Assembly: GCA_045588365.1 (NCBI GenBank)
Contig: JAZNEB010000024.1
Span: forward strand, 114,854-178,853
DNA length: 64,000 bases
Direction of reading: 5' to 3'
DNA from: Clostridia bacterium
Lineage (GTDB): Bacteria > Bacillota > Clostridia > CAKSNL01 > HGM11501
Of this stretch, positions 9,594-34,717 are shown in pieces. Each line of letters opens with the position of its first letter. Position 1 is the stretch's first letter. The notes under the pieces are model-generated. The model did not search any database. It was not told the origin of the DNA and saw only the letters and a program-made list of their open reading frames with translations. A program made the translations under genes and the position numbers.

Positions 9594-11288
9594 ATGAAAG
9601 CTACAAAATTACTTATGCCCACCTTGAGAGAGGCTCCCGCAGAAGCGGAGATTGCAAGCCACATTCTCATGATGCGTGCAGGTCTTATATCAAAGCTTGC
9701 CGCAGGCGTATATTCATATTTACCTTTGGGACTTCGTGTTCTTCAGAATACCGAGCGTATAATCCGTGAGGAAATGAATAAGGCAGGTGCTCAGGAGCTT
9801 TTGATGAGTGCTCTTCTCCCTGCAGAATGCTATCAGAAGTCAGGCAGATGGGACCGCTTCGGAGACGATATGTTTCGTCTTAAAGACCGTAATGAAAGGG
9901 ATTTCTGCTTAGGTCCCACCCACGAAGAAATTTTCACACAGACGGTTATTGACTCTGTTCACTCCTATAAGGACTATCCTTATACCCTTTATCAGATTCA
10001 GACCAAATACCGTGATGAGCGCCGTCCCAGATTCGGCGTTATGCGTACAAGAGAATTTTTAATGAAGGATGCTTACAGCTTCGATATTTCCAAAGAGGGA
10101 CTTGATGCTTCCTACGATGCAATGTACGACGCTTATAAGAAAACCTTTGACCGCATGGGCCTTGACTATATGATAGTTGATGCCGACACAGGTGCTATGG
10201 GCGGCTCAGGAAGTCAGGAATTCATGGTGATATCCGACGTTGGCGAGGATACTATTGCCTACTGCGAAGCATGCCGTTATTCTGCAAATATCGAAAAGGC
10301 TGTTTGTATCAAGGGCGAGTCCTCCAAAGAAGAAATGAAGGAAATGAATAAGGTTGAAACTCCCGATGCAAAAACCATCGAAGAGGTTGCCGCTTTCTTC
10401 GGCAAAGAGGCTAAAGACTTTGTTAAGACCATGATTTATAAAGCTGACGAAAAAATCGTTGCAGTTTTAGTTCGTGGAGACAGGGAAATCAACGAAATCA
10501 AGCTGGCAAATACTTTGGGTGTAGCGGAAGTTGCCCTTGCCGATGCATCAGATGTTGTTTCCGTAACAGGTGCTAAGGTCGGCTTTGCAGGTCCCGTAGG
10601 TCTTAAGATTGACGTTATAGCAGATAACGAAGTTATGGGAATGAGAAACTTTATAGTTGGCGCAAACGAAGACGATTGCCACATAGAAAATGTAAATCCC
10701 GAAAGAGACTTCAAGGCAACTTTAGTTGCTGATATCCGTTGCATCGCTGACGGCGATATCTGTCCCGTTTGCGGCAAAGAAATTAAAACTGCTCAGGGTA
10801 TTGAGGTAGGACATATCTTTAAGCTGGGCACAAAATATTCCGAAGCACTGGGTCTTAACTTTACCGATGATTCAGGAGAAGCAAAGCCCGTAATAATGGG
10901 CTGCTACGGAATAGGCATCAACCGTTGTGTTGCCGCTATAATTGAACAGAATCACGACGAGGCGGGCATTATCTGGCCTATGGACGTCGCTCCCTACAAG
11001 GTGGTTGTTGTTCCCGTAAATTATTCTGATGAAACCCAGAAGGCTTTGGCTGACGAAATTACCGAAAAACTGGAAAATGCGGGAATTGAGGTTATTTTAG
11101 ACGACAGAGACGAACGTCCAGGCGTTAAATTCAAGGACTGGGATTTAATCGGCATACCCGTAAGAATTACAATAGGCAAAAAGGCAGCAGAGGGCATTTG
11201 CGAATATAAGTTAAGGTGCGAAAAGGAATATTCGGAAATGGCAAAGGATGATGCCATAGCTTCTGCAATTTCAAAGGTAAGAAAATAA
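9594..11288 (+). CDS. proS: Prolyl-tRNA synthetase (bacterial type with editing insertion)
   Basis: [32 protein letters not shown]...; class II aaRS motifs, INS domain, C-terminal anticodon-binding domain; 564 aa. Confidence 0.95.
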
Positions 11289-11325
11289 TAATAAAGCTAT
11301 AGATTTAAAGAAAGGAGAGTTTAAT

Positions 11326-12318
11326 ATGTCCCTTCAGGCACAGGTAATAGGCATTGATCTGGGAACCACCTCGGTTTTGGTTTATGTCCCCGATAAAGGC
11401 GTTGTTTTAAGAGAGCCTTCTTTGGTTGCAATTGATGCATCCACTAAAAAAATCCGTGCAGTAGGAAGCGAAGCGGAAGCTCTTCTTTCAAAATCTCCCG
11501 GTGAGGTTTTAGCTATCCGCCCTCTTAAGGACGGAGTTATATCCGACTATTTCACCACAGAAAAAATGCTCCGCACCTTCCTTTTGAGAGTGTGTAAAAA
11601 CAGAATTATAAAGCCAAAGGTTGTTATTTCTGTTCCCAGCTCAGTTACGGAGGTTGAAAAGCGTGCCGTGGTTGAGGCGGCAGAAGCAGCAGGTGCAATG
11701 CAGGCTCTCGCCATTGAAGAGCCTCTGGCGGCGGCTATCGGCGCAGGAGTGGATATTTCAAAGCCTCTTGGCACTTTGGTGGTAGATATCGGGGGCGGCA
11801 CTACAGACACCGCTGTCATTTCTTTCGGCGGCATAGTAAAGGCTCATTCAATTAAAACTGCGGGAAACCGTCTGGATGAAGCTATAGTCCGTTACATAAG
11901 AGACAAGTATGGTGTAGCTATAGGAGAACGTACCGCCGAGGAGATAAAGATAAATATCGGCTGTGTATTCCCCAGGGATGACGAGCTTTCCATGGAGGTT
12001 TTAGGCAGAAGCTTGGTTTCAGGTCTTCCCAAAACCATTACCGTTACGGGCTCGGAGCTTTTAGCCCCTCTTACCGAATGTTTTTACGATATTATTGATT
12101 CCATACATCAGACACTTTCCGTTACCCCTCCCGAGCTTGTAAGTGATTTAAGCTCCACGGGTATTGTTTTAACGGGCGGAGGAAGCCTTATTTCAGGCGC
12201 TGCAGGCCTTATACAACGAGAAACCGGCTTAGTTGTTCACCCTGCTGATGACGCTGTGGCTTCCGTTGCCAAGGGAACAGGTCTGGCACTTTCAGTAATC
12301 GAGTATATGAACCAATGA
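11326..12318 (+). CDS. mreB: Rod shape-determining protein MreB/Mbl (actin-like ATPase)
   Basis: IGIDLGTTSVLVYV...VIDIGGGTTDTAVIS... actin-fold phosphate-binding motifs; 330 aa. Confidence 0.85.
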   Translation: MSLQAQVIGIDLGTTSVLVYVPDKGVVLREPSLVAIDASTKKIRAVGSEAEALLSKSPGEVLAIRPLKDGVISDYFTTEKMLRTFLLRVCKNRIIKPKVVISVPSSVTEVEKRAVVEAAEAAGAMQALAIEEPLAAAIGAGVDISKPLGTLVVDIGGGTTDTAVISFGGIVKAHSIKTAGNRLDEAIVRYIRDKYGVAIGERTAEEIKINIGCVFPRDDELSMEVLGRSLVSGLPKTITVTGSELLAPLTECFYDIIDSIHQTLSVTPPELVSDLSSTGIVLTGGGSLISGAAGLIQRETGLVVHPADDAVASVAKGTGLALSVIEYMNQ

Positions 12319-15512: not shown

Positions 15513-15926
15513 ATGTGGTTCATACTTTCTATTTTATCTGCTTTTTTTGCGGCAACCACTTCAATTCTCGCCAAGGTTGGTATTGACGGGGTAAACTCAA
15601 ATCTGGCCACAGCAATAAGGACGGTTGTGGTGGTTTTTATGGCGTGGGGTATGGTTTTTCTGACCAACGCTCAGGGCGGTCTTTCCGATATAAGTAAAAA
15701 AAGCTGGATTTTCCTTATTGCATCAGGTCTTGCAACCGGTGCATCATGGCTTTGCTATTATAAAGCGCTCCAGTTGGGAGAAGCATCAAAGGTTGTTCCT
15801 ATTGATAAATTGAGTGTTGTCATCACTTTGATTTTAGCATTCACATTTCTCCATGAACAATTTACTCCAAAATCCCTTATCGGTTGTGTTTTAATCGGCA
15901 TCGGAACTTTGGTCATGGTTATATAA
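15513..15926 (+). CDS. EamA-like small DMT-family transporter (4-TM half-size)
   Basis: 137 aa, four hydrophobic helices, EamA-type ...KVVPIDKLSVVITLILAFTFLHEQFT... Confidence 0.6.
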   Translation: MWFILSILSAFFAATTSILAKVGIDGVNSNLATAIRTVVVVFMAWGMVFLTNAQGGLSDISKKSWIFLIASGLATGASWLCYYKALQLGEASKVVPIDKLSVVITLILAFTFLHEQFTPKSLIGCVLIGIGTLVMVI

Positions 15927-15962
15927 AATTAAACTTTACATAGCTTAAGTGAAAGAAAAGTC

Positions 15963-15995
15963 TTGACTTTTTTGAAGATTTGTAGTATTATCTTA
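15963..15995 (+). promoter_or_regulatory. Promoter for tRNA-Arg
   Basis: TTGACT - 17 bp - TATTAT, ending about 10 bp before the tRNA 5' end. Confidence 0.35.
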
Positions 15996-16004
15996 ATGTT
16001 GTCT

Positions 16005-16081
16005 GTGCATGTAGCTCAGCTGGATAGAGCACTTGGCTACGGACCAAGGTGTCGAGGGTTCGAATCCTTTCATGCACGCCA
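16005..16081 (+). tRNA. tRNA-Arg (anticodon ACG) with encoded CCA
   Basis: Cloverleaf read by hand: acceptor GUGCAUG/CAUGCAC, D arm GCUC-AGCUGGAUA-GAGC, anticodon stem CUUGG/CCAAG with loop CUACGGA, T arm GAGGG-UUCGAAU-CCUUU, discriminator G, CCA. Confidence 0.85.
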
Positions 16082-16117
16082 AACAAAAAACCACCCACGG
16101 GTGGTTTTTTTGTTTGC
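16082..16117. terminator. Bidirectional rho-independent terminator after the tRNA
   Basis: AAACAAAAAACCACCCACGGGTGGTTTTTTTGTTTG: a palindrome with poly-A/poly-T arms. Confidence 0.6.
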
Positions 16118-16261
16118 GGTTTCAATCTTAAGGATTCGAACCCTGAGAGGGCATTTAGCGTATAAAAAAAGTTGCCAGGGGCAAGTTTTTTAGCTAAATG
16201 GTGCGTAGGCGGGTACCGAAACCGCAGGTTTGGGTCGCCGAGCAAGGGAGATGCGTAGCAT

Positions 16262-16323
16262 ATCCTTCCTTTCATGCACGCCAAACAAAAACACCATCCT
16301 TTTGGGTGGTGTTTTTGTTTTTC
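16262..16323 (+). repeat. Direct duplicate of the tRNA-Arg 3' end (about 26 nt) plus a second, related bidirectional terminator
   Basis: CCTTTCATGCACGCCAAACAAAAA is identical to the tRNA 3' portion plus the start of its terminator, followed by CACCATCCTTTTGGGTGGTGTTTTTGTTTTT. Inverted T-arm-like copies CTTAAGGATTCGAACCCTG(A/T)GAGGGCAT occur at 16128-16160 and 16455-16485. Confidence 0.6.
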
Positions 16324-16488
16324 AATGGATTTGAAAGGATTCGAAAGGCGTGTCCAAGAAAATGATTGATTATCATTTTCCACGCCGTGGCTTTCTCGCA
16401 AGAAAGCGAATCCGTCGTGGCCTCTTTCCCTCTGTATGCGTGGAAGCTTACTTTCTTAAGGATTCGAACCCTGTGAGGGCATCGCTTT

Positions 16489-17043
16489 CTATTCCCTGAT
16501 TTCATAATCAAAGCTAATCATTCTTACGCCGAAAAGTTCTTCTGCCCGGTCGTTATTCAATGTGCGAGAAAAAGCCCGTCCCCGACGATCGATGTAAAGA
16601 GCATCTACTCGGTCAACATTATCTGGACCGGCGCTCCAACCTGTATCCATATAAAATTCAGCACTGCCGGCATAGTAATAGATTTCGGAGGCATTATACC
16701 CTAAAAGCTCTGTAGTATCTACGTCGGAAAGGTCAAGCAGAGTAAAGGAAAGAACCTCATTCCCGTCTTCTTTTGTTTCCTTACTTGGAATGTATATGGT
16801 ATATTTTTTATTGATGACAGAAGCTGTAGAAAAAATGTTTATATCATATTCATCAAACTCACAAACAGCGGTATCGGAAATTGTAATGATTTCTCCGTTC
16901 AGCGAATATTTCAAGGTGAAATCTATTTCTTTTTTTCCTTCATAAATAAATTCTTTAACCAAAGTTATTACAGGCATACTAAAGCAAAAAATAATGAAAG
17001 CATTTAAGGCTATTCCAATAGCAATAAGTAAAGCTTTTTTCAT
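16489..17043 (-). CDS. Small N-terminally membrane-anchored protein; candidate immunity protein (paralog of 55080-55646 and 55664-56236)
   Basis: 184 aa, MKKALLIAIGIALNAFIIFCFSMPVITLVKEFI... with conserved C-terminal AEELFGVRMISFDYEIRE; about 60% identical to the two locus-2 paralogs. Confidence 0.6.
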   Translation of the reverse strand: MKKALLIAIGIALNAFIIFCFSMPVITLVKEFIYEGKKEIDFTLKYSLNGEIITISDTAVCEFDEYDINIFSTASVINKKYTIYIPSKETKEDGNEVLSFTLLDLSDVDTTELLGYNASEIYYYAGSAEFYMDTGWSAGPDNVDRVDALYIDRRGRAFSRTLNNDRAEELFGVRMISFDYEIRE

Positions 17044-17096
17044 AAAAATCCCCTTTTATTTCACTTCTTTGAGTGCAGAAATTACGGAATCTTTTA

Positions 17097-17447
17097 TCAA
17101 TTGTCAGTTGTTTCTCCTTTCGTTTTGATAAAGCCTATGAAAAACACTATACTCCATAAAAAAATCGCAATTCCATACTCCGCTATGGCGATAACTTTTC
17201 CGATGGAAAGCTCGTCGTATTTACTTATAAATGTAACATACGGAAGTAGGAAAATGCATATTTCCAAAAGTCCTTTGAAAAAATTACCTTTACTTGTTTT
17301 CATTTCCATCATGACAAGATAAAAAGGATGTGCCGACATTATGGGAAGCATTATAAATAGATTTTCTGAATTTAAAATTCTGAAAAAAAGTAATAATATC
17401 GAAGGGATGCTTTTTATCAAAAATTTTTTTACCGCTTCTTTTTTCAT
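17097..17447 (-). CDS. Small 3-TM membrane protein (holin-like or immunity candidate)
   Basis: 116 aa, three hydrophobic helices; sits between the PG-binding toxin-like gene and the small anchored protein. Confidence 0.45.
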   Translation of the reverse strand: MKKEAVKKFLIKSIPSILLLFFRILNSENLFIMLPIMSAHPFYLVMMEMKTSKGNFFKGLLEICIFLLPYVTFISKYDELSIGKVIAIAEYGIAIFLWSIVFFIGFIKTKGETTDN

Positions 17448-17464
17448 GACATCACCTTTTTCTT

Positions 17465-18535
17465 TTATTTTCCGTTTACTATAATTCCGTCAGAAAGAAT
17501 AATATTTTCTAAATATCTAACTTTAGGAATTATGCCCAGGACTTGCAAAACTCCTCCGTTTATAAGCATAGTCTGCGCTATTTGACTGCAATTGGAGAAA
17601 AGCAAATTATATCTAGGATTTTTTGTAGCGATATTTATTCCACTTTCTAAAATTTTCTTTCCCTGCTCGGGGGTTATTTTGTATTTTAACCCCTTATCAT
17701 ATTGTTCCGTACAAAAATCCCCATTTGATGTTGGAGTTTTAATTGTTGCTCCCCAAAGAAATTTATCGGTAGTTTCTTCATCAAAAACTCCTATTCGCAT
17801 ATCTGATTGAACACCAAAAGGCCATACTCCTGCTTTAGAGTGCTTAATGTAACTAAATAAAATACTTTCTCCATCTTCGTTTATCAAAAGCAACCCTGCA
17901 TGTCCGGCTCCATACGCACCTTGATTATCAATCAGATAATACGCCTGTGTAATACTTTCAGTATCATAATTTCTTAAATTATCTACCGTAACATCTATTG
18001 CTATCTGAGCTGTTCTTCTATCATTTTCCGTTGCTATAGCATACGCCTCATCAAAAACTGTCAGCAATTTATACTTCGCTGAATCCTCGCCATAGTTATA
18101 TGCATCGGGGTCTTCGCTCCATTCGCCCTTTGCATTATAGCCCGGCTTTATTACTCCCGATTCTTTTATTTTGCTTGTTTCCGGGCTTTTGCTCTCTGCA
18201 TCTGAATTCATAAAATATAAATCCTCTGTTTCAGAAACATCGGAAGAAAACATGTTTTCTTTCTCCTTCTTTTTATCGCTTATAGCTTTCCAGGTTTTGT
18301 CTCCCACAATACCGTCGGGAACAAGACCGTTTTCCTCCTGAAACTTTATGACAGCATTAAATGTGTTTATACCAAAAATTCCGTCTTCCGAAAGCTGTCT
18401 TCCCAAGGCGTCGGTATAGCCCATAGAATTAAGCTCCTTTTGAAGCACCTTTATTGTTTCGGGTGAGCCTGTATGGACAGATAATGTACTGCCCTCATCT
18501 TTTAACTCTTCAAATTCAAATTCGTTGTTATTCAT
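17465..18535 (-). CDS. PG_binding_1-domain protein with C-terminal permuted papain-fold (LRAT/NlpC-P60-like) domain; candidate cell-wall-targeting toxin or lysin
   Basis: 356 aa with no signal peptide. N terminus LQKELNSMGYTDALGRQLSEDGIFGINTFNAVIKFQEENGLVPDGIVGDKTW (peptidoglycan-binding repeat). C terminus AYYLIDNQGAYGAGHAGLLLIN...YNLLFSNCSQIAQTML, aligning with the His...NCEH block of 58418-60136. Confidence 0.6.
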   Translation of the reverse strand: MNNNEFEFEELKDEGSTLSVHTGSPETIKVLQKELNSMGYTDALGRQLSEDGIFGINTFNAVIKFQEENGLVPDGIVGDKTWKAISDKKKEKENMFSSDVSETEDLYFMNSDAESKSPETSKIKESGVIKPGYNAKGEWSEDPDAYNYGEDSAKYKLLTVFDEAYAIATENDRRTAQIAIDVTVDNLRNYDTESITQAYYLIDNQGAYGAGHAGLLLINEDGESILFSYIKHSKAGVWPFGVQSDMRIGVFDEETTDKFLWGATIKTPTSNGDFCTEQYDKGLKYKITPEQGKKILESGINIATKNPRYNLLFSNCSQIAQTMLINGGVLQVLGIIPKVRYLENIILSDGIIVNGK

Positions 18536-18718
18536 TTTATCATATTTCCTCCTTATTTACAATAATTTTTTGAAAGTGCTTACGCACTAACCCCCTATCT
18601 ATAACTATTATAACACAAAAAGTTAAATTTATCAAGAATAAATTAACCTAATGGGCGTATTTATTTTGATGTGTTGCCTTTAGAATAGGTTTTGAACTTA
18701 TTTTCCCTTCAAAAAACA

Positions 18719-18995
18719 CTTGCTTTTTTCTACATTATATGTTAGAATGTTTTATAATGTAAAAAAGCTATGAACGGGAAAGTAAGTTTTTCATTTTCTG
18801 TAAAGAGAGGGAGTGCCGTGGGCTGAAAGCCTCCCCGTGAAAAGAAATTCCGAAGTTCGCCCGGGAGCTGCATTTCTGAAACCAAGTAGGATTTGCCGTT
18901 TTGCCTTGCGTCAAAGGATTAAAGTGCCTTTTTTAAGGAATTAGGGTGGTACCGCGGATTTTTTCGTCCCTGCTTTTGCAGGGACTTATTTTTTT
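18719..18995 (+). promoter_or_regulatory. T-box riboswitch leader (Phe specifier) with promoter and terminator, upstream of pheS-pheT
   Basis: Promoter TTGCTT-17-TGTTAGAAT; stem I with an AGAGA GA-motif; UUC present in a candidate specifier loop (gaaattccgaaguucgcc); canonical T-box AATTAGGGTGGTACCGCG at 18939-18956; terminator GUCCCUGC-UUUU-GCAGGGAC plus U9 at 18966-18995. Confidence 0.8.
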
Positions 18996-24286: not shown

Positions 24287-27200
24287 TTATCTGCCTAAGA
24301 GATTCATTAATCTGGTAAGCATAACTACTGCTTCTGCTCTGGTAGCTTCCTTCTTAGCACCGAAGGTTCCGTCGGGGTATCCTGAGATAACGCCCTTGTC
24401 AGCTGCCCAGTTAACCTGGTAGTTTGCATAGGTGGAAATTTCAGCCTTATCAGCAAAGCTTGCTTCGCCTGAGATTTCCCACTCTGCTCCAACCTTGGTA
24501 GCATAACGGTAAATCATGGTTGCCATCTGTTCTCTTGTAATCTTTGCATAGGGTGAGAATGTGTCTTCAGTAGTACCCATTGTGATACCCTGATTTACTG
24601 CCCATGCAACTGCATTAGCGAACCAGTCGCCTACATTTACGTCTGCAAAGTTCTCAGAGCCGTCTGATGTCTGACCTGATATCTTATAAAGAATCTGGCA
24701 GAACTCAGCTCTTGTAATATCGCTGTCGGGGTCAAAGGCTGTCTCTGACTTACCGTTTACGATATAGTCAACATACATATTGCTGATGGCTTCCTTAGCC
24801 CAGTGATTCTGAATGTCAGCAAGGTCTGTTGCCTGACGAACCTTTCTTACATAGGGATATACTGTCAGGCTGCCTGTAACTCCTGTGTTTGCATAAGGAA
24901 CTGTGTAAGCAGCGTCAAGATACCAGCCTACAAATTCGTATCCTGCCTCTACAGCGGGAGCTGAAAGAACTGTGCCCTTGGTAACTGCCTGTGTTCCGAC
25001 ACCTGAAATTACAACCTGGAACTTATCGCTTACGCCGCCGAAGCCGCCGCCACCGAAGCTTTCAGGCTTATCGTCATCGGATGAGTCGCCTCCGCCGCCC
25101 TGAGGTCTCTGAGGCTGACCGCCTGACTGCTTGAGTTCCCAAACAGCAACGAATGTCACGTCTTCATCAGGCATTACGAATGGGTCGCCTGCGCTGTAAA
25201 GAGTATATTCTTCTCCTTCTGCTACAACCTCTCCAGTCCAGTTCCAGCCCTTAAAGGTATAGCCAGTAAGCTTAAGGCTGCTTGATGCGATGGTGATTTC
25301 GTCGCCTTCCATATAGAACTTGGAAGCGGGAACGGTTCCCTTTGCACCGTGTTCGTCAACGTAGGTTACCTTACGACGGGTAACACCCTCTGCATCAGCA
25401 ATGATGTGAATGTCGCCTCTTGCGTTGAATATTGTAATTACACCGATTTCATCGCCGGGATTTAAGCTCATAAGAGATACTTCGCCGGGAACGGTTGTCT
25501 TTACATAAGAGAAGTCAAGACCGCATACAAGAACGTGTCCGTCCTGTGTGATTTCGGTAATTTCGTTGGGAAGCTCCTCTCCCTCGTGAGCTACCAATGT
25601 AACCTCTAAGGTTTCACCCTTTGTAGCTGTCGTAGGAGTATCAGCTGTTGTGGAAAGACCAACTAAGTCGGTTGTTACCTTAACTTCGCCGGGAGCAACG
25701 GCAACTGTACTTACCTTAACAACTGCATCTGCATAAAGGTCAGCAATCTTGAATTCTTCTGTCTTTGTACCCTTTCTTGTAACCTCACCCTTAACAGCAA
25801 CGTTCTTTTCTGTTGCTACTCTTTCAATAAGGTTGATGTCGGCAACGGAGAAGTTGGAGTTTCCTCTCTTCATCCAGATATAAAGACCGTCCAATTCAAT
25901 GGGATCAAATGTGATTGCCTGAAGTGTTTCATTTGCTAAAAGAGTACCTGTCTTGAAGGGAGTGTCAGCAATAACGCTGTCAACTATTGCATAGAGCTTA
26001 TATTCTCTTACGCCCTGTCCTGCTGCATAAGCATTGGGGCTTGTTAAGTGAATTCTGTGCTGCCAGCTCATGGAAGAAAGTGTAACTCTTCTTCCGAATA
26101 TAGCGGTAATATCAAGGTCGTTATTTACAGAGTCGTAGCTTCCGCCATGACCTGCTGTATCGGACCAGACATCAGTTGTATTGTTGTTATCAAATGCTCT
26201 GTGGATACCGTAGTCTCTGCCGGAATTTCTAAAGCCATTTGTGGTAAGAGTCCATGTATCATCAAACAGCAAGGGCTTTTCTTCATAGGTAGTCTGGATG
26301 TTTTCTTCGATTTCCCATACAGCCTCATATCCGTCTTCTATGATGGTTGCAACAAATACTGTATCCTCATGACGCTTTGCATCGAAGGGAGATACTGAAA
26401 CCTCACCAATTACTTCGCCTGTTTCCTTATCTACTCTCTTAGCAATAACTGTTACGTTAGCATCCTGAGAACCGAATGTTACAGAGTGGATTTCTTCTTC
26501 CACATAGCCTGCGGGAACACTTACGTCATCGCCCATAACAAAGCTCATAACGAAGTCGAATTCTTCGGGAAGAACTGAGCTTCCGTTATCTAAGAAGAAG
26601 TCCTTTGTGATAACGATTGTCTCGCCCTGTGTATTGATGTAGGAGGGGTCAACTGTGGTAATTACTTCGCCCTCTGCCACAACCCTGATTGCCGAAAGAG
26701 CAACTGCATCGTTGTAAACTACGCCGAAGGACACATCCCTGGGGTCAGTCTCTGAGAAGAGAGCTCTCTCTCCCTCAAAGGTGATTTCTGCAGGATTCAA
26801 GCTTCTTCCTGAACCGGGCTTGTAGAGACAGATTTCCATTATACTTGTAGGATTGGAAGTGGTAACAATGCAAAGTCTTAAGTATCTTGCAGTTACGTTT
26901 ACTTCCTCGCCGTTTATCATAAACTTGATGTCGTCGTAGGAATTTTTGTTTGAGCCCTTATCAAGAGTTGCCTTCCAGGTGTCTGAGGTGAGCCAGTTTA
27001 CACCGTCGTTTGATACCTGGAGATAAGCCTTATTCATTGTCTGACCGAACTGACGGTTTCCTCCGCTTACCCATACTCTGTGATATACTCTTACACCCGA
27101 GAAGGTGTGAGGAATCTGATAGTCAATTTCGATAACGGGATATGCCCCTGTTGTGCTGTCAGAGTAAATTTCAGCTGCTGCACTTTCAACTGTAAAGCCG

Positions 27201-30200
27201 CTGGATTTAAGCTTCTTGTCGTCATCGGAGTTTGTCATAATTTTTCCGTCGGCAGTTCTTCTTACAACACCTCTGTCAATGAGGTTTCCTACTCCGCCGC
27301 CGTTGGAATAGCCTGATACATACTTGATTGTGTTTGCGAAGTTATAGGGAAGAACTTCATCACTAAACAGCTTTTCACCGAAGCTTACATTAAGTACGGC
27401 AGACATTTCGCCGCCAAATACTTCGATTGTTGTTGCTACACCTGCAGTCTTTATTGCACTCAGTGCGCCCTTCTTGATGGTGAGCTTCATTGTTTCTGCA
27501 TCAAATGTATAGTTGGATGAAGAAACTGTCGCTCCGCCAACCTTAACGCCTGTTACGGGAAGGTCGGTATAAACAACAACTTCTTCATTTGCATTTGCCT
27601 TCTCAAGAGTTACAGAGGTCATAACGCCGCCGAACTCATTGTAAATTCTGAGAGAAGGTGCAAGGAATCTGATTGATGCCGCTGTAGCATACTGCGTATT
27701 TGAGATATAAATTCTTAAGTATCTTACTTCTGCATTCTTAGAGAAGCTGAGGTCGGTAGTTCTTGCACTGCCTGTTGCCTTTCCGTCGTAAAGCTTCTCC
27801 CATGTTTCAAAGTCATCAGAGCCAAAGATTTCAACCTTGGACCAGTTAGGCTGATACTTTCCTCCTTCATATCTTGCATAGTAACGAAGACCGCCGATTT
27901 CTGCTGTAGCACCAAAGTCGATGTCAAGATAATGGTTGTTGCCTTCGTTTGTTTCACCGTGGTAACGGTAACCACCTGTTAATTCTGCCAATGTTGATCT
28001 GAAGAATGCATTTACGGGGTGGTTTGCTCCCGCATTGTTCCATACAGAGTCAGGTCTTACTGCAAAATCGGGATATTCTGTGATGATATCAATTTCATCT
28101 GAAGCAAAGGTAGCATCGGTAGATAATGCATTTGCCTTTGTTGCCCAGTAACCCGAAAGAATTACCGAATAGGTGAGATATGAATTGTCCTCAAACTTAA
28201 CCAAAAGCTGAAGCTTTCCTGTTTCAAGACCCAACGCCTTATATACGTCAAATGCCTTACGGAAGTCGCTTCTTCCGATTGTAATTGTTTCTTCATTTGC
28301 TGTGAAGGGAATTACAGTTCCGTCAGATTTCAATACTACCTTGGTAACTGAAAGACCCTTTATGTTCTTAAGCTCAAGCTTTTCTGTTCTTGCTACAGAA
28401 GTGCCATTGTAGTAGCTGAACTTGAACTCGGTCTCTGTGCAGTCGTTAACCTTCAAGGTGGTCTCACTTACTTCGCCGCCTGCGAAATAAACCTTTAAGG
28501 GATATGTTCCAACTTCAAATTCTAAGAAGTATTCCTGGTCGATCGTAATTTTGTCTGCTTCAACCAGATATCTGGTGTTGGAAATTTCTTCTCCGTTAAA
28601 TTCAACCTTGGAAATTGCCTTTCCTGAAGGATAGGTAATATAGTTAACAACAACGTCTTCCTGAAGCTCGGGAGCACCCTTTTCAAACTCTAAAGTGCCC
28701 AATATTCTTGAAGAAGGCTTTAAGATACGGATAGCATTTGCTGTGGGATAGCCTGTATTACCGATATAGATTCTTAAGTATCTTACTTCGGTATTGCCAT
28801 CAAACCACAAATCGTTAATTCTTTCGCTTGTTGCGGAGCCTTCATAAAGGGTTTCCCAAGTTTCAAAGTCAGTTGAACCGGAAATTACAATCTGGCTCCA
28901 GTTGGGATCCAAGAAGGGAAGTCCGGTGGTGCCGTTGGTAGCAATTCTTGCAATGTAACGAACGCCGCCTACGGTTACGTTTTCACCGAAATCAACATCA
29001 AGGTAGTGGTTTCTTCCTTCATCGGTTGAAGCATGATAACGCTGACCTGCAGCCTCCTCTGAGATTTCTTCCTGGAAGAATGCGCCTGCAGGATGGTTAC
29101 TTACAGCATTGTTCCATACAGAGTCGGGTCTTATTGCGAAGTTTTCATAGTCAAGAATGTTAATTTCATCTGTATCAAAGGTTGCATTTACTGTCAAAAC
29201 ACCTGTCAAATCTGCTGCTGTTACCCAATCACCGGAAATGGTAATGGTATAAGTTAAGGTTGTATCATCCTCGAAGGTAACTACTACCTTATGCGCACCT
29301 TCTTCCAATCCCATTGCTGCATATACGTCAAATGCCTGACGGAATGCTGTTCTTGTGATTGTGATATTGCTTGTGTTTGCAGTAAAGGGAATTTCAACTG
29401 TTTCATCTTCAAAGAGAGTAACCTTGGTTACGTTAAGTCCCTTTACGTTATTGAGAACTATTTCTTCTGTTCTTCTGACTGAAGTTCCTGACAAGTAGGA
29501 GAACTTAAATTCTGTCATTAAGCTGTTTGCAACCTTAAGCGTTGCGGTAACAGGATCAGCAATATCATTAAAGTAAAGCTTAAGTTCATAGTCGCCTATA
29601 TTCATTCCAACTAAGCTTTCCTTTTTGATTGTAACTGTTCCGTATTCACCAATAAAGTAATCCTCGGAAGAAATTTCTTCTCCTTCAAGTTCAATCTTGG
29701 AAAGAGTCTTTCCGGAAGGATAGGTTACATAGTTAATTACAACATCATCTGCAATCTCTGTTGCTCCTGCTTCAAAACGTAATTCATTTGTTACTCTCGA
29801 GGTGGGCTTCAAGAAGCTTAAGGAGTTTGCTGTTACGTGAGCATTTACACCCTCGATGTAAATTCTTACATATCTTACGCTTGCATTGTCGCTAAATCCA
29901 AACTCGTTTATTCTCTGGCCGTTATTTGCAGCCCCTTCATAAAGCTTTGTCCATGTTTCAAAGTTTGTAGAACCGTAGATTATAACCTTCTTCCAGTCGG
30001 GAGTATAGTTTCCGCTTTCAAGCCTTGCCTGATAGCGCAAGCCGCCTACGGTTACAGTTTCACCGAAGTCAACATCGATATAGTGGAGCTTTCCTTCGGT
30101 TGTTTCGGCGTGGTAGTTATATCCGGTTACACCCTCTGCCGCTCTGGGATAGAAGAATGAGCTCATGGGATGGTTTTTCCATGCGTTATTCCATACAGAG

Positions 30201-33200
30201 TCTGCTCTTACAGCAAAGTTGTCAAGCTCTGTAACGTCAATTTCGTCATCATCGTAAGCTTTTAAAGAAGCATCAGACATTAATGTTATTTCCTGGAAGT
30301 CTGCCTTGGTGAACCAGTGACCTGTCATATTGATGGTGTAGATCATAGATACTCCGCCTTCAAACTCAACCTTTACTTTAATCTGTCCGCCATCCTTGCC
30401 CATTTCCTTATAAACATCAAATGCCTTACGGAAGTTGCTTCTTGTAATAGTAATTGTTTCTTCATCAGCGGTGAAAGGAATTTCCACTGTATTGTCCTCT
30501 AAAAGAGTAACCTTTGTTGCTGTGAGTCCCTTTACATTGTTTAATGTAATATTCTCCGCTCTTGTAAGAGATGTACCACTTCTGTAAGTGAACTTAAATT
30601 CAACCTGGCTGAAGTCAATTACATCAATGCTTGCAGATAAAACTTCACCTGTTCCAAAGGTTATCACAACCTCATGGCTTCCCTTTTCAAGAGAAAGTGC
30701 AAATTCTTCTGAAAGAACAATCTTTTTATCAACTAAAGTATAGTCTGTATTTAATGTAAGTTCTTCTTCGTCAACCTCTACCTTGGTAACCTCGGTAGCA
30801 TCAACTGTAAGAGTAATGTCGTCTATTATAACATCCTCAGGAACGGAAACGTCAATCTGTACATTTCCTTCATTTGTAATTCTGGGAAGATTTGCAATCT
30901 GAGCTGCAGTCTTGGTTACAACATCCTCATCATCAATGGGATCAATAAGACGGATTTCGGAGAATGCCCATACGTTCTGAACATAATTCGGATTATTTTC
31001 TGCAATTTCAGTCGCTTCAACCTTTAAGTATCTTGCCTTAAGGTTGTACTGTGTTCCGCCGTATACAGCCATCATGTCCTGACTTAAGTTGATTCTTGCA
31101 CCCGAGAACATATCAGACTTTAACCAGGTTTCTCCGTCCTCAGAAACATAGATATAGCCCTTGGTCATGTTCTGATGACCGCCGTTGTTTTCGAACAATT
31201 TGGTGCCATCGCCTGAAATTCTGCCGTAAACTCTTACACCGGAGAAGGTCTTCTCTTCGCCTAAGTCTATCTCAATCCATGCTGTTGTGGCATCGGCAGT
31301 TCCCTGTTTATTTGCTGCAACTGCATTTGCGATTTCAACAAACTGGCCTGATATTTTTCCGTAAGCGTTATCAAAAGCATAGATAAGCTTGTTAAGTGAG
31401 CTTGCTGTAGCAGTACCATTTGTGCTACCCAGTGTCAGTGCACTTTCTAAAGTTTCTTTTGCAGGAAGGTCTATATCTCCCTTTGCTAAGGGGTTAAAGT
31501 CGCCACCGATAAAGTTATGCGAAAGTTCTTCGCTCGGCCAATCTTCCTTATCCCTGGGCTTTAACACTTCAATTTCCATTATACAGGTGTACTTTGTTCC
31601 ACCGTTCTGGGTTGCGAGAGTTACAACCTTGATACCAACTAATTCCTCAGCCTCTTCAAGGTATATGCTCTTAGGCTGTCTGTCATAGCCTTCTGAACCC
31701 TGAACGTCGTACTTGGTATATAAAATTCTTCCGTCAATAATATGTCTTTCTTCGGTGCCGTCCGCAGTTTTATATATACCTATAAGTCTTACATCCATGG
31801 GGCTTGATCCATGGCTTGCGTCAGGTCTGTGATAGAGTCTTACACCGCCAACGGGAATTTCCTCATTGAACATAATTGTAACGGTCTTTGCATCTAAAAG
31901 TCCCTGTCCTGTTGCAGTTGTTTGGTGGTTTCCGTGCCAGCCGTTGGTGTAAAGGTTTCCTAATGTAACTCCGTCAAAAAGTCGGGGAGTCCATGTCTTG
32001 ACATTGGATTCAACAGGCTCTGCAGTTTCTCCGTCGTGAGTTGTTGAACCAACCTTGGTATTTGCCATATCTATATATACGGAAGGATCATAGAAGTCAG
32101 ATAAGCCTGCTGTCTGTGCAGGAGTCAAAGCAGCTTCATTTGCAATGGGATCTAAAAGTCTGATTTCAGAAACTGTCCAGTTTCCTGCTTCGCCACCGTA
32201 AAGCTTAGTTGCTACAAGCTTTACATATCTTGCCTTTATGTTCTTGGCTTCTTTGCCGAACTTTGTGGGAACATCCTGATAAAGAGCTGTTTTGCTTGCT
32301 GCAGCAAAGCCGTCTGTACTATACCAGTTTTCACCGTCTGAGGATAACAGGAGATAACCGTGTGTGAGTCCCTGCATACCTGACGCATAAACAGTTGTGG
32401 CATTTTCACGTCTGTTGTAAACTCTTAAGCCCGAGAAGGTAATCTCTCTGCCTAAGTCAAACTCAATCCACGCCTTTTCGTTTGCAGCTGTATTTACACA
32501 GTACAAGTATTCAAAATGACCGGGAGATGCACCTGTATAGCCCATTAAGTTATCATAAAGATATTTCGAAGGCCACTGAACGGGATTTTCCGCATTCTCT
32601 GCATCCGAACCGATTGTAACGGTTACAGGAGGCATGGAGAAATCACCGTCTGCAAAGGTCAAAGGATAGGTGATTTCTGCAGAAGGTCTCAATTCAACTG
32701 CCTTGGGCTTTAAGATTTCAATTTCCATAAGAGCAACAAATGAAGGATTTGTTGCAGGATTTTCACCCTGGAATACAAGGTCAATACCCACAAGGTCCTC
32801 TAAGGGGTCATCAAAATAGATGCTCTTACCGTCTAAGTCATAGCCAGAAGCATTTAATGTGAATGTAACATGATGTCTTGAAAGGGGAAGCTTCTTTGTT
32901 CCGCCGTTTCCGTCATCATAAATTCCTACAACGTCAAAGTAGCCGGGTGTTCCTGTTCCATTCTGTCTGGGATAAAGTCTTACACCGGCAACAGTTTTTT
33001 CGCCGTCAATAAAGTCGTCATTGAACATAACTGTAATGGTTCTGCCTGCATCATCTGTACCGCTTGCAGACTGCCAGCCGTAAAGGTTGAATGCAGAAGA
33101 CTCTATAACTCCGTCAAAGAGCTGAGATATATTATAGCTGCTTGCTAAAGCAGAACCGTAAGCAGAATTTTCAAGGTCGATATATTTATCCGCCTTGTAG

Positions 33201-34717
33201 TAATCCGTTCCGCCCATTGCTACTTTTGCTTCAGCTTCTTCCAAAAGTGCAACATAATTTGTAGCAGTATCTCCGTCTTCTTCATATCCGCCGGAAAGGG
33301 CGAGCTTCTGAACACCCGAAAGCTCATCATAAGCCTCTCTTGCAGCTTCAACTAAGCCCTTGTTTGTTTCAAAAGCATCGTCATCTTCAAAATCCAAATC
33401 TTCCAGTGCTTCAATCTTGGATATAACTGCAACAGCGGAAGCCTCTTCCTTATAAGAGGAAAGATTAGCCATATCAATTATATCATTGCCTCTGGGAGCC
33501 AGGAAACGGATTTCAGAATTTGCCTGATGTATACTACCTCTGTCTATAACAAGTCTTATGTATTTGGCGTTAACCATATCGTATGGGGTTTCGCCAAAGC
33601 TTACATAAAGGTCCTGTTTAAGAGTATTTTCCGCTGTAACAAGGTCAGCTCTTGCCCAGTTAGTGCCGTCTGCAGAAACCTCAAGGTAACCGCCGGAAAA
33701 TCTCTGATTTCCGCCGCCGTTTGACCAAGGTACATACTCTCCATCCACAACAGATGTTCTCTGATAAAGTCTGATACCGGAAAAGCTGAAAGGAACGTAA
33801 GATGTGATTGTGAAGGTAGCTGTGCAGCCTTCTTTCAAAGCTCCGTCCACTTTTTCAATGGCGTTCTGATAGCACATATATGTACCAAGATTATAGTCAG
33901 TAAGATTAGAGATAGCGCCTTCAATTACCGCATTAGCCGTTCTTTCTCCCTGTCTGGAAACTTCAATAGAATAGAAAGCAGGAGCAAAAGCCGGAACTTC
34001 TCCGGCACCTACGCCCTTGCCTGCGAAATCTGTATAATTCTCAGAAGGTTTCAATATATCAAGACCTGCAAATGCAGTAAAGCCAACACCGGGATTTCTT
34101 CCGCCCGAACCGTCAGCAACATGTGCAACAACTATTTTAAGTCCTTTAACGGTAGCATCGGCACCTTCTGCAAAGTAAACGTTTTTACGAACATTTGCAG
34201 CGTTGTCTCCGTCCTTTTCATAGTCTCCGACATCTCCAGAGAAAAGGATTTTTTCCCCGTCTTCATAAATACCTTTAACTATAATAAAGCGGGGAGCTCC
34301 ACCCAGATTATTTCTGGGCCAGATACCAATACCGCCAACTTCAATTCCTCCGTCGGTAAATTTTTCTTCATTAAACATAACCGTAATGGTCTTCTTAGCC
34401 AAAGCCGCTTCGGTAACTCCTGCAGCATCGGTCGTTGAATGCCATATGGTTGTGTAATTATCACTGTCAAAGAGGTTTGAAGCGCTTCCCTGAGCAACAC
34501 TTCCCACTTCACAGCTTTCTATGTAAGTTGCATAGTCATAGTAATCTGCTTCGGAAGCAAAAAGTTCTGCTTCTTCCTCCTCATCTTCAAATTCCTCTGC
34601 CTCAATAACTTCGGGTTCAAGTTCTGCCTCTTCCCCGAATATGGGCATGGTTGTAAAACCTGTGCATAAAGATACTAACATACACAAGCTTAAAACAACA
34701 GATAAGATTTTCTTCAT
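24287..34717 (-). CDS. Giant (3476 aa) SLH-anchored surface protein with multiple F5/8 type C (discoidin)-like domains, Ig-like repeats, two Listeria-Bacteroides-type repeats and three C-terminal SLH domains
   Basis: Signal peptide MKKILSVVLSLCMLVSLCTGFTTMPIFG. Recurring ...TITVMFNEE...GG(V/I)RLY.R... discoidin-like units; ...YEFVGWYLDAAYTV... (Flg_new-like); C terminus has three SLH-like repeats (AISNMYVDYIVNGKSETAFDPDSDITRAEF..., FADVNVGDWFANAVAWAVNQGI..., FADKAEISTYANYQVNWAADKGVISGY...). Confidence 0.85.
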   Translation of the reverse strand: MKKILSVVLSLCMLVSLCTGFTTMPIFGEEAELEPEVIEAEEFEDEEEEAELFASEADYYDYATYIESCEVGSVAQGSASNLFDSDNYTTIWHSTTDAAGVTEAALAKKTITVMFNEEKFTDGGIEVGGIGIWPRNNLGGAPRFIIVKGIYEDGEKILFSGDVGDYEKDGDNAANVRKNVYFAEGADATVKGLKIVVAHVADGSGGRNPGVGFTAFAGLDILKPSENYTDFAGKGVGAGEVPAFAPAFYSIEVSRQGERTANAVIEGAISNLTDYNLGTYMCYQNAIEKVDGALKEGCTATFTITSYVPFSFSGIRLYQRTSVVDGEYVPWSNGGGNQRFSGGYLEVSADGTNWARADLVTAENTLKQDLYVSFGETPYDMVNAKYIRLVIDRGSIHQANSEIRFLAPRGNDIIDMANLSSYKEEASAVAVISKIEALEDLDFEDDDAFETNKGLVEAAREAYDELSGVQKLALSGGYEEDGDTATNYVALLEEAEAKVAMGGTDYYKADKYIDLENSAYGSALASSYNISQLFDGVIESSAFNLYGWQSASGTDDAGRTITVMFNDDFIDGEKTVAGVRLYPRQNGTGTPGYFDVVGIYDDGNGGTKKLPLSRHHVTFTLNASGYDLDGKSIYFDDPLEDLVGIDLVFQGENPATNPSFVALMEIEILKPKAVELRPSAEITYPLTFADGDFSMPPVTVTIGSDAENAENPVQWPSKYLYDNLMGYTGASPGHFEYLYCVNTAANEKAWIEFDLGREITFSGLRVYNRRENATTVYASGMQGLTHGYLLLSSDGENWYSTDGFAAASKTALYQDVPTKFGKEAKNIKARYVKLVATKLYGGEAGNWTVSEIRLLDPIANEAALTPAQTAGLSDFYDPSVYIDMANTKVGSTTHDGETAEPVESNVKTWTPRLFDGVTLGNLYTNGWHGNHQTTATGQGLLDAKTVTIMFNEEIPVGGVRLYHRPDASHGSSPMDVRLIGIYKTADGTEERHIIDGRILYTKYDVQGSEGYDRQPKSIYLEEAEELVGIKVVTLATQNGGTKYTCIMEIEVLKPRDKEDWPSEELSHNFIGGDFNPLAKGDIDLPAKETLESALTLGSTNGTATASSLNKLIYAFDNAYGKISGQFVEIANAVAANKQGTADATTAWIEIDLGEEKTFSGVRVYGRISGDGTKLFENNGGHQNMTKGYIYVSEDGETWLKSDMFSGARINLSQDMMAVYGGTQYNLKARYLKVEATEIAENNPNYVQNVWAFSEIRLIDPIDDEDVVTKTAAQIANLPRITNEGNVQIDVSVPEDVIIDDITLTVDATEVTKVEVDEEELTLNTDYTLVDKKIVLSEEFALSLEKGSHEVVITFGTGEVLSASIDVIDFSQVEFKFTYRSGTSLTRAENITLNNVKGLTATKVTLLEDNTVEIPFTADEETITITRSNFRKAFDVYKEMGKDGGQIKVKVEFEGGVSMIYTINMTGHWFTKADFQEITLMSDASLKAYDDDEIDVTELDNFAVRADSVWNNAWKNHPMSSFFYPRAAEGVTGYNYHAETTEGKLHYIDVDFGETVTVGGLRYQARLESGNYTPDWKKVIIYGSTNFETWTKLYEGAANNGQRINEFGFSDNASVRYVRIYIEGVNAHVTANSLSFLKPTSRVTNELRFEAGATEIADDVVINYVTYPSGKTLSKIELEGEEISSEDYFIGEYGTVTIKKESLVGMNIGDYELKLYFNDIADPVTATLKVANSLMTEFKFSYLSGTSVRRTEEIVLNNVKGLNVTKVTLFEDETVEIPFTANTSNITITRTAFRQAFDVYAAMGLEEGAHKVVVTFEDDTTLTYTITISGDWVTAADLTGVLTVNATFDTDEINILDYENFAIRPDSVWNNAVSNHPAGAFFQEEISEEAAGQRYHASTDEGRNHYLDVDFGENVTVGGVRYIARIATNGTTGLPFLDPNWSQIVISGSTDFETWETLYEGSATSERINDLWFDGNTEVRYLRIYIGNTGYPTANAIRILKPSSRILGTLEFEKGAPELQEDVVVNYITYPSGKAISKVEFNGEEISNTRYLVEADKITIDQEYFLEFEVGTYPLKVYFAGGEVSETTLKVNDCTETEFKFSYYNGTSVARTEKLELKNIKGLSVTKVVLKSDGTVIPFTANEETITIGRSDFRKAFDVYKALGLETGKLQLLVKFEDNSYLTYSVILSGYWATKANALSTDATFASDEIDIITEYPDFAVRPDSVWNNAGANHPVNAFFRSTLAELTGGYRYHGETNEGNNHYLDIDFGATAEIGGLRYYARYEGGKYQPNWSKVEIFGSDDFETWEKLYDGKATGSARTTDLSFSKNAEVRYLRIYISNTQYATAASIRFLAPSLRIYNEFGGVMTSVTLEKANANEEVVVYTDLPVTGVKVGGATVSSSNYTFDAETMKLTIKKGALSAIKTAGVATTIEVFGGEMSAVLNVSFGEKLFSDEVLPYNFANTIKYVSGYSNGGGVGNLIDRGVVRRTADGKIMTNSDDDKKLKSSGFTVESAAAEIYSDSTTGAYPVIEIDYQIPHTFSGVRVYHRVWVSGGNRQFGQTMNKAYLQVSNDGVNWLTSDTWKATLDKGSNKNSYDDIKFMINGEEVNVTARYLRLCIVTTSNPTSIMEICLYKPGSGRSLNPAEITFEGERALFSETDPRDVSFGVVYNDAVALSAIRVVAEGEVITTVDPSYINTQGETIVITKDFFLDNGSSVLPEEFDFVMSFVMGDDVSVPAGYVEEEIHSVTFGSQDANVTVIAKRVDKETGEVIGEVSVSPFDAKRHEDTVFVATIIEDGYEAVWEIEENIQTTYEEKPLLFDDTWTLTTNGFRNSGRDYGIHRAFDNNNTTDVWSDTAGHGGSYDSVNNDLDITAIFGRRVTLSSMSWQHRIHLTSPNAYAAGQGVREYKLYAIVDSVIADTPFKTGTLLANETLQAITFDPIELDGLYIWMKRGNSNFSVADINLIERVATEKNVAVKGEVTRKGTKTEEFKIADLYADAVVKVSTVAVAPGEVKVTTDLVGLSTTADTPTTATKGETLEVTLVAHEGEELPNEITEITQDGHVLVCGLDFSYVKTTVPGEVSLMSLNPGDEIGVITIFNARGDIHIIADAEGVTRRKVTYVDEHGAKGTVPASKFYMEGDEITIASSSLKLTGYTFKGWNWTGEVVAEGEEYTLYSAGDPFVMPDEDVTFVAVWELKQSGGQPQRPQGGGGDSSDDDKPESFGGGGFGGVSDKFQVVISGVGTQAVTKGTVLSAPAVEAGYEFVGWYLDAAYTVPYANTGVTGSLTVYPYVRKVRQATDLADIQNHWAKEAISNMYVDYIVNGKSETAFDPDSDITRAEFCQILYKISGQTSDGSENFADVNVGDWFANAVAWAVNQGITMGTTEDTFSPYAKITREQMATMIYRYATKVGAEWEISGEASFADKAEISTYANYQVNWAADKGVISGYPDGTFGAKKEATRAEAVVMLTRLMNLLGR
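27790..30790 (-). repeat. Three tandem internal repeats of about 1 kb (about 335 aa each) inside the giant gene
   Basis: The protein blocks (T/V)EFKFSY.SGTS..R(T/A)E.I.L(N/K)N(V/I)KGL..TKV.L..D.TV.IPFTA.....ITI.R..FR.AFDVY...G recur at about aa 1310, 1640 and 1975. The DNA copies are diverged by roughly 20-30%. Confidence 0.6.

Follow-up and report, generated by a model that had tools for sequence, protein, structure and literature searches.

A strain-variable array of small, hairpin-bearing modules behind a tRNA-Arg gene in uncultured gut Clostridia

Introduction

Genes for tRNAs are classic docking sites of genomic islands, and the remains of decayed islands beside them are usually dismissed as scars. 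Sublocations of integration within tRNA genes were reportedly treated by Williams in 2002 (NAR 30:866). Fragments of tRNA genes arise from the integration of mobile elements (PMC9897764). Here we describe the DNA behind a tRNA-Arg(ACG) gene in a stretch of 64,000 nt from a Clostridia bacterium (contig JAZNEB010000024.1, positions 114,854 to 178,853), which as a whole is called the window. The gene is followed by an array of modules that are bounded by attachment-site-like copies of the tRNA 3′ end (att, the last 17 nt of the tRNA with a terminator of its own), by a truncated inverted copy of tRNA-Arg (R), or by both. Repeats are present, the order and copy number of the modules vary among relatives, modules are shared horizontally, no integrase lies locally, and the hairpins carry compensatory changes. 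While the origin of tRNA fragments by integration is already known, the miniature size, the boundary formed by an inverted T-arm and the conserved hairpins are unusual. With somewhat less than even confidence, we read the locus as a strain-variable array of gene-less modules resembling cis-mobilizable elements (CIMEs), which would be integrase-less derivatives of mobile DNA docking at the 3′ end of tRNA-Arg.

The closest described systems are the att duplications made by tyrosine integrases and the accretion of CIMEs. As in these, an intact tRNA is followed by direct copies of its 3′ end, repeat-bounded segments are present or absent among relatives, and units are stacked in tandem; variable cargo adjoins the array, and the proximal unit supplies the terminator of the tRNA. 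Unlike integrative and conjugative elements, integrative and mobilizable elements, and CIMEs, the units here measure 200–330 bp instead of kilobases and are free of genes, and neither an integrase nor a full-length relative was found in the searches given below. Also unlike these elements, inverted T-arm repeats bound modules here, and hairpins of non-tRNA sequence are maintained by compensatory change.

Other small elements share some of these features. The modules resemble repetitive extragenic palindromic sequences (REPs), bacterial interspersed mosaic elements (BIMEs), BOX elements and miniature inverted-repeat transposable elements (MITEs) in being small, non-coding and rich in hairpins, in varying in order and number by strain, and in lying between convergent or adjacent transcription units. 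With tRNA-derived or tRNA-like small RNAs (sRNAs), such as those of 3′ external transcribed spacers and YrlA, they share an acceptor 3′ strand, CCA, a terminator, a same-strand site directly downstream of a tRNA gene and a conserved secondary structure. Similarly, single-strand origins of the ssoA type, hairpins of transfer origins (oriT) and attC-like sites are 130–200-nt non-coding stretches of bulged, imperfect hairpins whose stems vary while the shape is kept. Unlike such single-stranded signals, the array has no Rep, relaxase or integron integrase gene nearby.

Results and Discussion

Repeats behind the tRNA-Arg gene

ARAGORN and Rfam concur on a single tRNA, whose sequence is identical across all relatives of the clade. 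Behind it the window carries, as established by a repeat finder and by direct reading, terminator 1, R1, A1, att, terminator 2, B, R2 and then a three-gene island. The features of the array are:

15963–15991, plus strand: sigma-70-type promoter of the tRNA gene (TTGACT-17-TATTAT)
16005–16081, plus strand: tRNA-Arg(ACG) with encoded CCA (ARAGORN and Rfam)
16082–16118, plus strand: terminator 1, a bidirectional hairpin flanked by an A-run on its 5′ side and a T-run on its 3′ side (arms 16077–16096 and 16099–16118)
16126–16154, plus strand: R1, a 29-nt repeat, in which 16130–16144 is the exact reverse complement of the T-arm
16267–16291, plus strand: att copy, an exact 25-nt duplicate comprising the terminal 17 nt of the tRNA with its CCA, and 8 nt of trailer (repeat finder)
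16283–16320, plus strand: terminator 2, homologous to terminator 1 (arms 16283–16299 and 16304–16320)
16321–16453, plus strand: module B, with R′ (16332–16345), hairpins at 16347–16386 and 16390–16407, and a GAATCC half-site at 16408–16413
16454–16482, plus strand: R2, the 29-nt repeat again, differing from R1 at one loop position (repeat finder)

The repeats behind tRNA-Arg are real and go beyond chance expectation. The exact direct repeat TCCTTTCATGCACGCCAAACAAAAA, found by the repeat finder at 16065–16089 and 16267–16291, consists of the final 17 nt of tRNA-Arg and 8 nt of trailer, and the 17-nt tRNA end has 2 matches in 64 kb against 0.00 expected. The direct repeat R, TCTTAAGGATTCGAACCCTG(A/T)GAGGGCAT, occupies 16126–16154 and 16454–16482 with 28 of 29 nt alike (2 matches of the pattern against 0.00 expected). 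Within R, AAGGATTCGAACCCT shows 100% complementarity to the T-arm (16055–16069), the exact reverse complement taking up the first 15–19 nt of the repeats, and a mini-hairpin, CCCT-GAG-AGGG, lies inside R1 at 16141–16151. The third inverted piece, R′ (TGAAAGGATTCGAA, 14 nt), is 100% complementary to 16059–16072 and is an inverted copy of TTCGAATCCTTTCA. All four occurrences of GGATTCGAA fall within 16059–16468 (0.83 expected). Segment A1 runs from R1 to 16266, and the array terminates at the last base of R2.

Much of this layout had been proposed in an original prediction made by reading the DNA. The intact tRNA-Arg(ACG) with CCA, its palindromic terminator, and the downstream copy of the 3′ end with a second terminator were all recovered by ARAGORN, Rfam and the repeat finder, although the copy is 25 nt long and not 26. 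The two inverted T-arm repeats exist at 16126–16154 and 16454–16482, which replace the coordinates 16128–16160 and 16455–16485, and the piece once regarded as a degenerate third copy is the fully complementary R′. The cassette described as lying right behind the array does so, in that a minus-strand open reading frame (ORF) of 184 aa ends at 16489, 6 nt past R2. A 9-nt perfect inverted repeat (AGAAAGCGA / TCGCTTTCT, 16401–16409 and 16482–16490), which may be due to chance, joins the second hairpin of module B to the first bases past R2, at the junction with the island.

Module order and copy number among relatives

The relatives belong to an uncultured lineage of gut Clostridia with a handful of related contigs in the collections, all of them metagenome-assembled genomes (MAGs) or metagenome assemblies. 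The modules are common to a small clade, recur in four related MAG lineages and vary in number and order, as seen at the following related loci:

L001 (HolA 93% identical in aa): tRNA, terminator 2, B, R, A2, att, terminator 3, a large surface-protein gene
L007 (HolA as in L001): tRNA, terminator 2, B, 49-nt inverted tRNA-Arg fragment, pheS promoter
L019 (84% lineage): the contig opens inside the 49-nt inverted tRNA-Arg fragment and continues into the pheS promoter
L009 (80%): tRNA, terminator, two near-identical copies of (R-A-att-terminator), a third R, two 37-nt hairpins, pheS promoter
L016 (window-like, 94% in nt): terminator 3 of L001 directly behind the tRNA; the contig stops 46 nt past the tRNA
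L007 9755–9803 and L019 1–33: the inverted 49-nt tRNA-Arg copy, which in both lineages immediately precedes the pheS promoter

The inverted fragment is 98% identical to tRNA positions 16021–16069, from the D-loop to the T-arm. By its sequence, R is the truncated T-arm end of this inverted partial copy of tRNA-Arg. The inverted T-arm fragments are thus not scars of independent events but the end of a copy that extends to 49 nt in L007 and L019. The 5′ part of the inverted copy is degenerate, and the motif TGTATAAA on its minus strand could be a –10 element.

The orders seen at these loci are connected with one another. The window order R-(A-att-terminator 2-B-R) is a circular permutation of the L001 order att-(terminator 2-B-R-A-att). 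The contiguous A-att-terminator 2-B of the window is the junction predicted if the insert of L001 had circularised; a donor element was not found among phages, plasmids, IMG/VR or JGI metagenomes. An array of att-terminator 1-R-A1-att-terminator 2-B-R-A2-att-terminator 3 suffices to derive three of the observed orders: that of L001 through deletion between the first and second att copies, that of L016 through deletion between the first and last att copies, and that of the window through loss of A2-att-terminator 3 past the second R, at the present place of the island. The orders of L007/L019 and of L009 require extra steps from a single parental array. In L009 the tandem duplication has a period of 210 nt with 97% matches.

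Terminator 2 stands directly behind the genuine tRNA in L001 and L007, and every att copy carries an intact terminator, as is expected of an element that replaces the tRNA 3′ end. All att copies start at the identical base, immediately 3′ of the TTCGAA of the T-loop. Since the distal copies lack TTCGAA, a crossover, if an integrase was involved, would have taken place within TCCTTTCATGCACGCCA(+8) and not in the T-loop. The idea that the tRNA-end copies are scars of integrase-mediated insertion holds insofar as they act as module boundaries that differ among close relatives (L016, L001 and the window). An unoccupied site, which the original prediction suggested seeking in related genomes, may be represented by L016, where the tRNA is followed by terminator 3 only; the site is apparently empty in a contig that ends 46 nt past the tRNA. 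Compared with L001, where 330 bp lie between two att copies before an equal terminator 3, L016 fits insertion and deletion alike.

Outside the small clade, relatives at 71–74% HolA identity have no modules; they have a single terminator and a tRNA-Arg with another acceptor stem. In relatives with PheS about 82% identical, the synteny is different. Two of the 71% relatives (L004 and L006, positions 11180–11900) carry another insert directly behind tRNA-Arg, which is nearly identical in both MAGs and contains a minus-strand gene and a divergent ORF, the putative product being a helix-turn-helix protein (XRE-like); a second copy of their tRNA end was not found within 10 kb. The 37-nt hairpin element of L009, GTCATAGGCAAAAGCGACAAGCTTTTGCC(G/T)AAGGCAT, occurs in two copies at 10047–10083 and 10151–10187. 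It starts 4 nt past a (T/C)CGAA motif, ends with GGCAT like repeat R, and has no copy in the window.

Sharing of modules between species

Between the window and L001/L007, the 216 nt of the block att-terminator 2-B-R show 99.5% identity. Identity of the surrounding DNA is only 81.4% across 8.6 kb to the left and 85.6% across 7.2 kb to the right. The edges of the block coincide with the repeats, as it starts exactly at att and ends exactly at R. Similarly, att with terminator 3 is 100% identical between L001 and L016, though L016 is otherwise window-like (94%). Such a module in genomes whose flanks are 81–86% identical argues for mobility. The identity of the 216-nt module would be explained either by recent movement or by constraint of the kind that acts on a tRNA. 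Constraint on B is unlikely because B is missing from L009 and unseen in the short contig of L016. Judged by these identities, the module is one that has been exchanged horizontally between species, and the 99.5% block is the strongest evidence for mobility or exchange of the modules.

Repeats of this kind might also have arisen with no mobile element at all. The tRNA 3′ end with its terminator would have been duplicated locally, and an inverted partial tRNA copy added, through replication slippage, fold-back template switching at the palindromic terminator or T-arm, or unequal crossing-over; the variants would then have been swapped between species by transformation and homologous recombination. 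The T-arm and terminators are indeed quasi-palindromes prone to template switching, terminators 1 and 2 are homologous, L009 shows a recent tandem duplication of 210 nt, and the 49-nt inverted tRNA copy is found in two lineages. A ComEC competence gene lies 1.5 kb upstream, and an integrase was not found in scans of the region and the window ORFs. We nevertheless consider this explanation unlikely. It accounts for neither the origin nor the covariation of the hairpin sequences outside the tRNA copies, which measure 128 nt in A and about 110 nt in B. Furthermore, flanking homologies of 25 and 29 nt are marginal for RecA exchange between genomes 81% identical, and the edges of the 99.5% block coincide exactly with att and R.

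Alternatively, mis-joins made during metagenome assembly, at the invariant tRNA or the short repeats of co-occurring relatives, could account for the permutation of orders and for the near-identity of module B across species. Every sequence compared is a MAG or metagenome contig, and the contigs of L015, L016 and L019 end within or just past repeats. However, three independent assemblies from separate projects each place a different neighbour to the right of B, the repeats of 25–29 nt are far shorter than the final k-mers of the assemblers (k141 in contig names), and the repeats inside the window are independent of any comparison. We hold mis-joining to be very improbable.

Hairpins and compensatory changes

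Four hairpins make up the fold of the non-tRNA part of the R-A unit, namely the mini-hairpin of R1 and the following three:

16152–16200, plus strand: P0, a long hairpin whose stems are CATTTAGC/GCTAAATG (outer) and A7GTTGCC/GGCAAGT6 (inner)
16208–16239, plus strand: P2, an imperfect hairpin (GGCG, 3-nt bulge, ACC, G-G mismatch, variable tip, GGT, CGCC)
16247–16265, plus strand: P3, a short hairpin immediately 5′ of the att copy, covarying with L009

The fold is far more stable than those of shuffled sequences (z = –5.9). P0 is terminator-like in the directions of both strands and covaries with L009. P2 has an outer stem of GGCG/CGCC in the window, whereas L001 has GACC/GGTC there and L009 has GGTG/CACC. 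Across four units from three lineages, which amount to three independent sequences in an alignment fitted to the structure model, 98.7% of 150 pair cells are paired. Double-sided changes occur in 11 of 42 pairs, compared with 0–1 in slid controls, and none of 500 shuffles reaches the covariation score. Between A1 and A2, 21 columns differ, 13 of them unpaired and 8 paired, and none of the 8 breaks a pair. G-U pairs are nearly absent (one pair type in about 150 cells), leaving the stems almost purely Watson-Crick. The compensatory changes imply that the hairpins are under selection or are kept by some palindrome-preserving process. The conservation of P0 and of terminators 1 to 3 can be ascribed to their A- and T-runs, which give them the look of bidirectional terminators. 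A conserved structure had been named beforehand as an alternative to integration scars, and it is borne out in part: the non-tRNA hairpins are kept by compensatory changes, unlike plain decaying scars.

The unit is laid out as AAGGA-TTCGAA-(128 nt of hairpins)-TCCTT-TCATGCACGCCA. In a covariance model built from A1 and A2, the stretch of the real tRNA from T-arm to 3′ end aligns with both ends of the unit, leaving a 128-nt gap in between, and so the unit is shaped like the 3′ part of a tRNA with an expanded T-loop. This shape raises the possibility, which we find doubtful, that each unit, or the tandem series as a gene family, encodes a structured sRNA derived from tRNA-Arg. Such an RNA would comprise a T-stem-like closing helix (AAGGA/TCCTT), the TTCGAA start of a T-loop, the 128-nt insert of four hairpins, the acceptor 3′ strand, discriminator, CCA and terminator. 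Its synthesis would rely on read-through from the strong promoter of the tRNA, or on a promoter that has escaped recognition, and trimming as for a tRNA would follow. In agreement with it are the pairing and double-sided changes given above, the intact pairs between A1 and A2, the stability of the fold, the fit of the covariance model to the unit ends, and the CCA and intrinsic terminator that close each full unit on the tRNA strand.

Several results oppose a gene for an RNA. A promoter of its own was not found, since the tRNA promoter, which lies upstream of terminator 1, is the sole promoter-like site within 15850–16650. A strong terminator lies ahead of each unit, and the first hairpin is itself terminator-like. 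The near absence of G-U pairs would be unusual for an evolving RNA, and the covariation comes from only three independent sequences in an alignment fitted to the structure. Unlike known tRNA-derived sRNAs, the modules are confined to a narrow clade: the units are absent from L007, apparently from L016, and from all relatives at 71–74% HolA identity. Unlike tRNA-like sRNAs, the module is recognised by neither the tRNA covariance model nor ARAGORN, and even relaxed ARAGORN sees no tRNA-like fold in A. In Rfam 15, only the tRNA and a T-box pass the gathering threshold, and extending the search to E ≤ 10 adds only terminator-driven noise.

Other candidates were rejected. A known RNA family for the modules was dismissed, with nothing beyond tRNA, T-box and noise in Rfam. 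A degenerate tRNA or tmRNA in segment A was dismissed as well, as ARAGORN at 80–90% thresholds, with or without introns, gave nothing credible on the plus strand; the apparent tRNA landmarks in A (GTGCG..TAG, GAGCA, AGGG) are unsupported by ARAGORN. REPs carry a GTAG motif ahead of the hairpin, and GTAG precedes P2 in the window, but it is replaced by GAAG in L001 and L009. The hexamer TAGCGT is CS-6 of ssoA (PMC4598088). It is present at 16157–16162 in the window and also in L001, although a 6-mer in 370 nt is not significant. An ssoA-type single-strand origin was rejected, since only TAGCGT matches and it is not kept in L009, which has TTGCGT; moreover, the hexamer lies outside the terminal loop, and there is no RSB-like sequence.

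Searches for recombinases, donors and further copies

The units are att-bounded, non-coding and without recombination and transfer genes, as is characteristic of a CIME. In our tentative reading of the locus as a CIME-like array, the modules would have entered by site-specific recombination in the 17–25-nt identity block, with an integrase encoded elsewhere and acting in trans. Later, recombination of att with att and of R with R, be it homologous or site-specific, would have brought about duplication, deletion and permutation. The conserved hairpins may be cis-acting signals of the modules, some of them serving as terminators and insulators.

A number of findings weigh against this reading. 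A tyrosine or serine recombinase was not found in any frame of 15963–16511, where no ORF has a Pfam match at E ≤ 1, among 25 other window ORFs (30 window ORFs were scanned in all), or among the genes called next to the array in L007, L008 and L009. A donor element with the modules was not found in collections of phages and plasmids, IMG/VR or JGI. Every rearrangement is explicable by homologous recombination between repeats of 25–55 nt with no integrase, and 200 bp is little for a unit that is excised as a circle. The pairing of P2 and P3, kept by compensatory changes, implies a function that the idea of a scar does not supply. Furthermore, the contig with the empty site, L016, stops 46 nt past the tRNA, and all sequences are metagenome assemblies, in which short repeats may cause mis-joins. 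The integrase remnant that the original prediction had suggested looking for was not found in the 370-bp region, among the scanned window ORFs or in the flanks of relatives, and the candidate of an integrase pseudogene in 16119–16488 was rejected. Repeated integration and excision with loss of the integrase, as then proposed, accords with the varying cargo of the slot and with the 99.5% identical module, but ordinary recombination between repeats suffices.

The donor searches were as follows. No match to the modules came up in blastn searches of 50,697 phage and 72,556 plasmid records, exact patterns of R, att and B had no match in IMG/VR, and the R pattern had none in the JGI metagenomes. Seven IMG/VR matches to a 16-mer of A were rejected as chance, the unit being absent, as were four JGI matches to an A-att pattern, which lie in coding DNA without a tRNA. 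With the covariance model, units were found solely at the tRNA-Arg locus in about 287 kb (the window and 23 loci), which is small compared with a genome. Unlike REPs, BIMEs and MITEs, the modules are not dispersed in these 287 kb and have neither terminal inverted repeats nor target duplications, and a dispersed repeat of the MITE or REP-BIME type was rejected. A REP with its associated tyrosine transposase (RAYT) was rejected too. A 173-aa ORF with a Y1_Tnp domain (26.6 bits; IS200-like or possibly RAYT) lies at 15761–16282 in L009, with REP-like palindromes GTAGGGGCGATTCATGAATCGCCC inside and behind it. Unlike the palindromes of a REP/RAYT system serving the array, these are unrelated to the modules, and they were not found in the window or the other loci.

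Apart from derivatives of ordinary mobile DNA, the modules might represent something new, although we think this improbable: an undescribed miniature mobile cassette that is gene-less and carries only folded signals, or a new tRNA-derived structured RNA travelling along. A cassette of this sort, made of hairpin sets of ~130 nt between an anti-T-arm and a tRNA 3′ end, together with the related B, would dock through its tRNA-derived ends. It would depend on a recombinase in trans, which might act on folded single-stranded DNA as at integron attC or CTX-phage attP sites.

The slot between tRNA-Arg and pheS

The variable slot runs from tRNA-Arg to pheS, and past the array it consists in the window of the following cargo and anchor:

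16489–18535, minus strand: three-gene cargo encoding 184, 116 and 356 aa, with a low GC content of 30–34%
18711–18974, plus strand: right-hand anchor of the slot, the pheS promoter and T-box leader (18761–18974), kept in all relatives

In the window, this three-gene, low-GC island occupies the slot. L001/L017 have a surface-protein gene there, and in L007, L009 and L019, which lack the island, the slot is empty of cargo. The 356-aa island protein has a PG_binding_1 domain and a weak TseH-like match, the 116-aa protein is membrane-like, and the 184-aa protein has no Pfam match. The gene that takes its place in L001/L017 is a giant one of >1,780 aa with F5/8 type C and InlB B-repeat domains. No tRNA-end copy or other direct repeat was found on the far (pheS) side of the island, and an island bounded by att or by a target duplication was rejected for lack of a flanking repeat. 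In our reading, the toxin-like island is one among several cargos that can occupy this place at the array's outer edge, and is not itself bounded by att.

The T-box leader upstream of pheS-pheT scores 115 bits. On the other side, the tRNA is adjoined by a gene for a 137-aa EamA-family protein (15513–15926), which is 85–90% identical to proteins of many Clostridia (Agathobacter, Oscillospiraceae). The HolA protein encoded next door falls to 71–74% in the nearest other genera, and the EamA gene is absent between holA and tRNA-Arg in L002, L004 and L006. This pattern suggests either horizontal spread or unusual conservation. Farther along the window are two giant minus-strand ORFs, at 24287–34717 (3,476 aa) and 41415–46688 (1,757 aa).

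Conclusions

What would ordinarily pass for scars at this tRNA-Arg gene are organised modules of 200–330 bp that conserve their hairpins and are near-identical between species differing by ~15–19% nearby. If the array consists only of relics, it provides a clean example of att repeats driving permutation, duplication and loss at a tRNA hot spot, and also a warning for the annotation of tRNAs and MAGs. Should the modules be active, they would rank with the smallest known units of site-specific mobility, and they would mark a hot spot for the swapping of toxin or surface-protein cargo in uncultured gut Clostridia.

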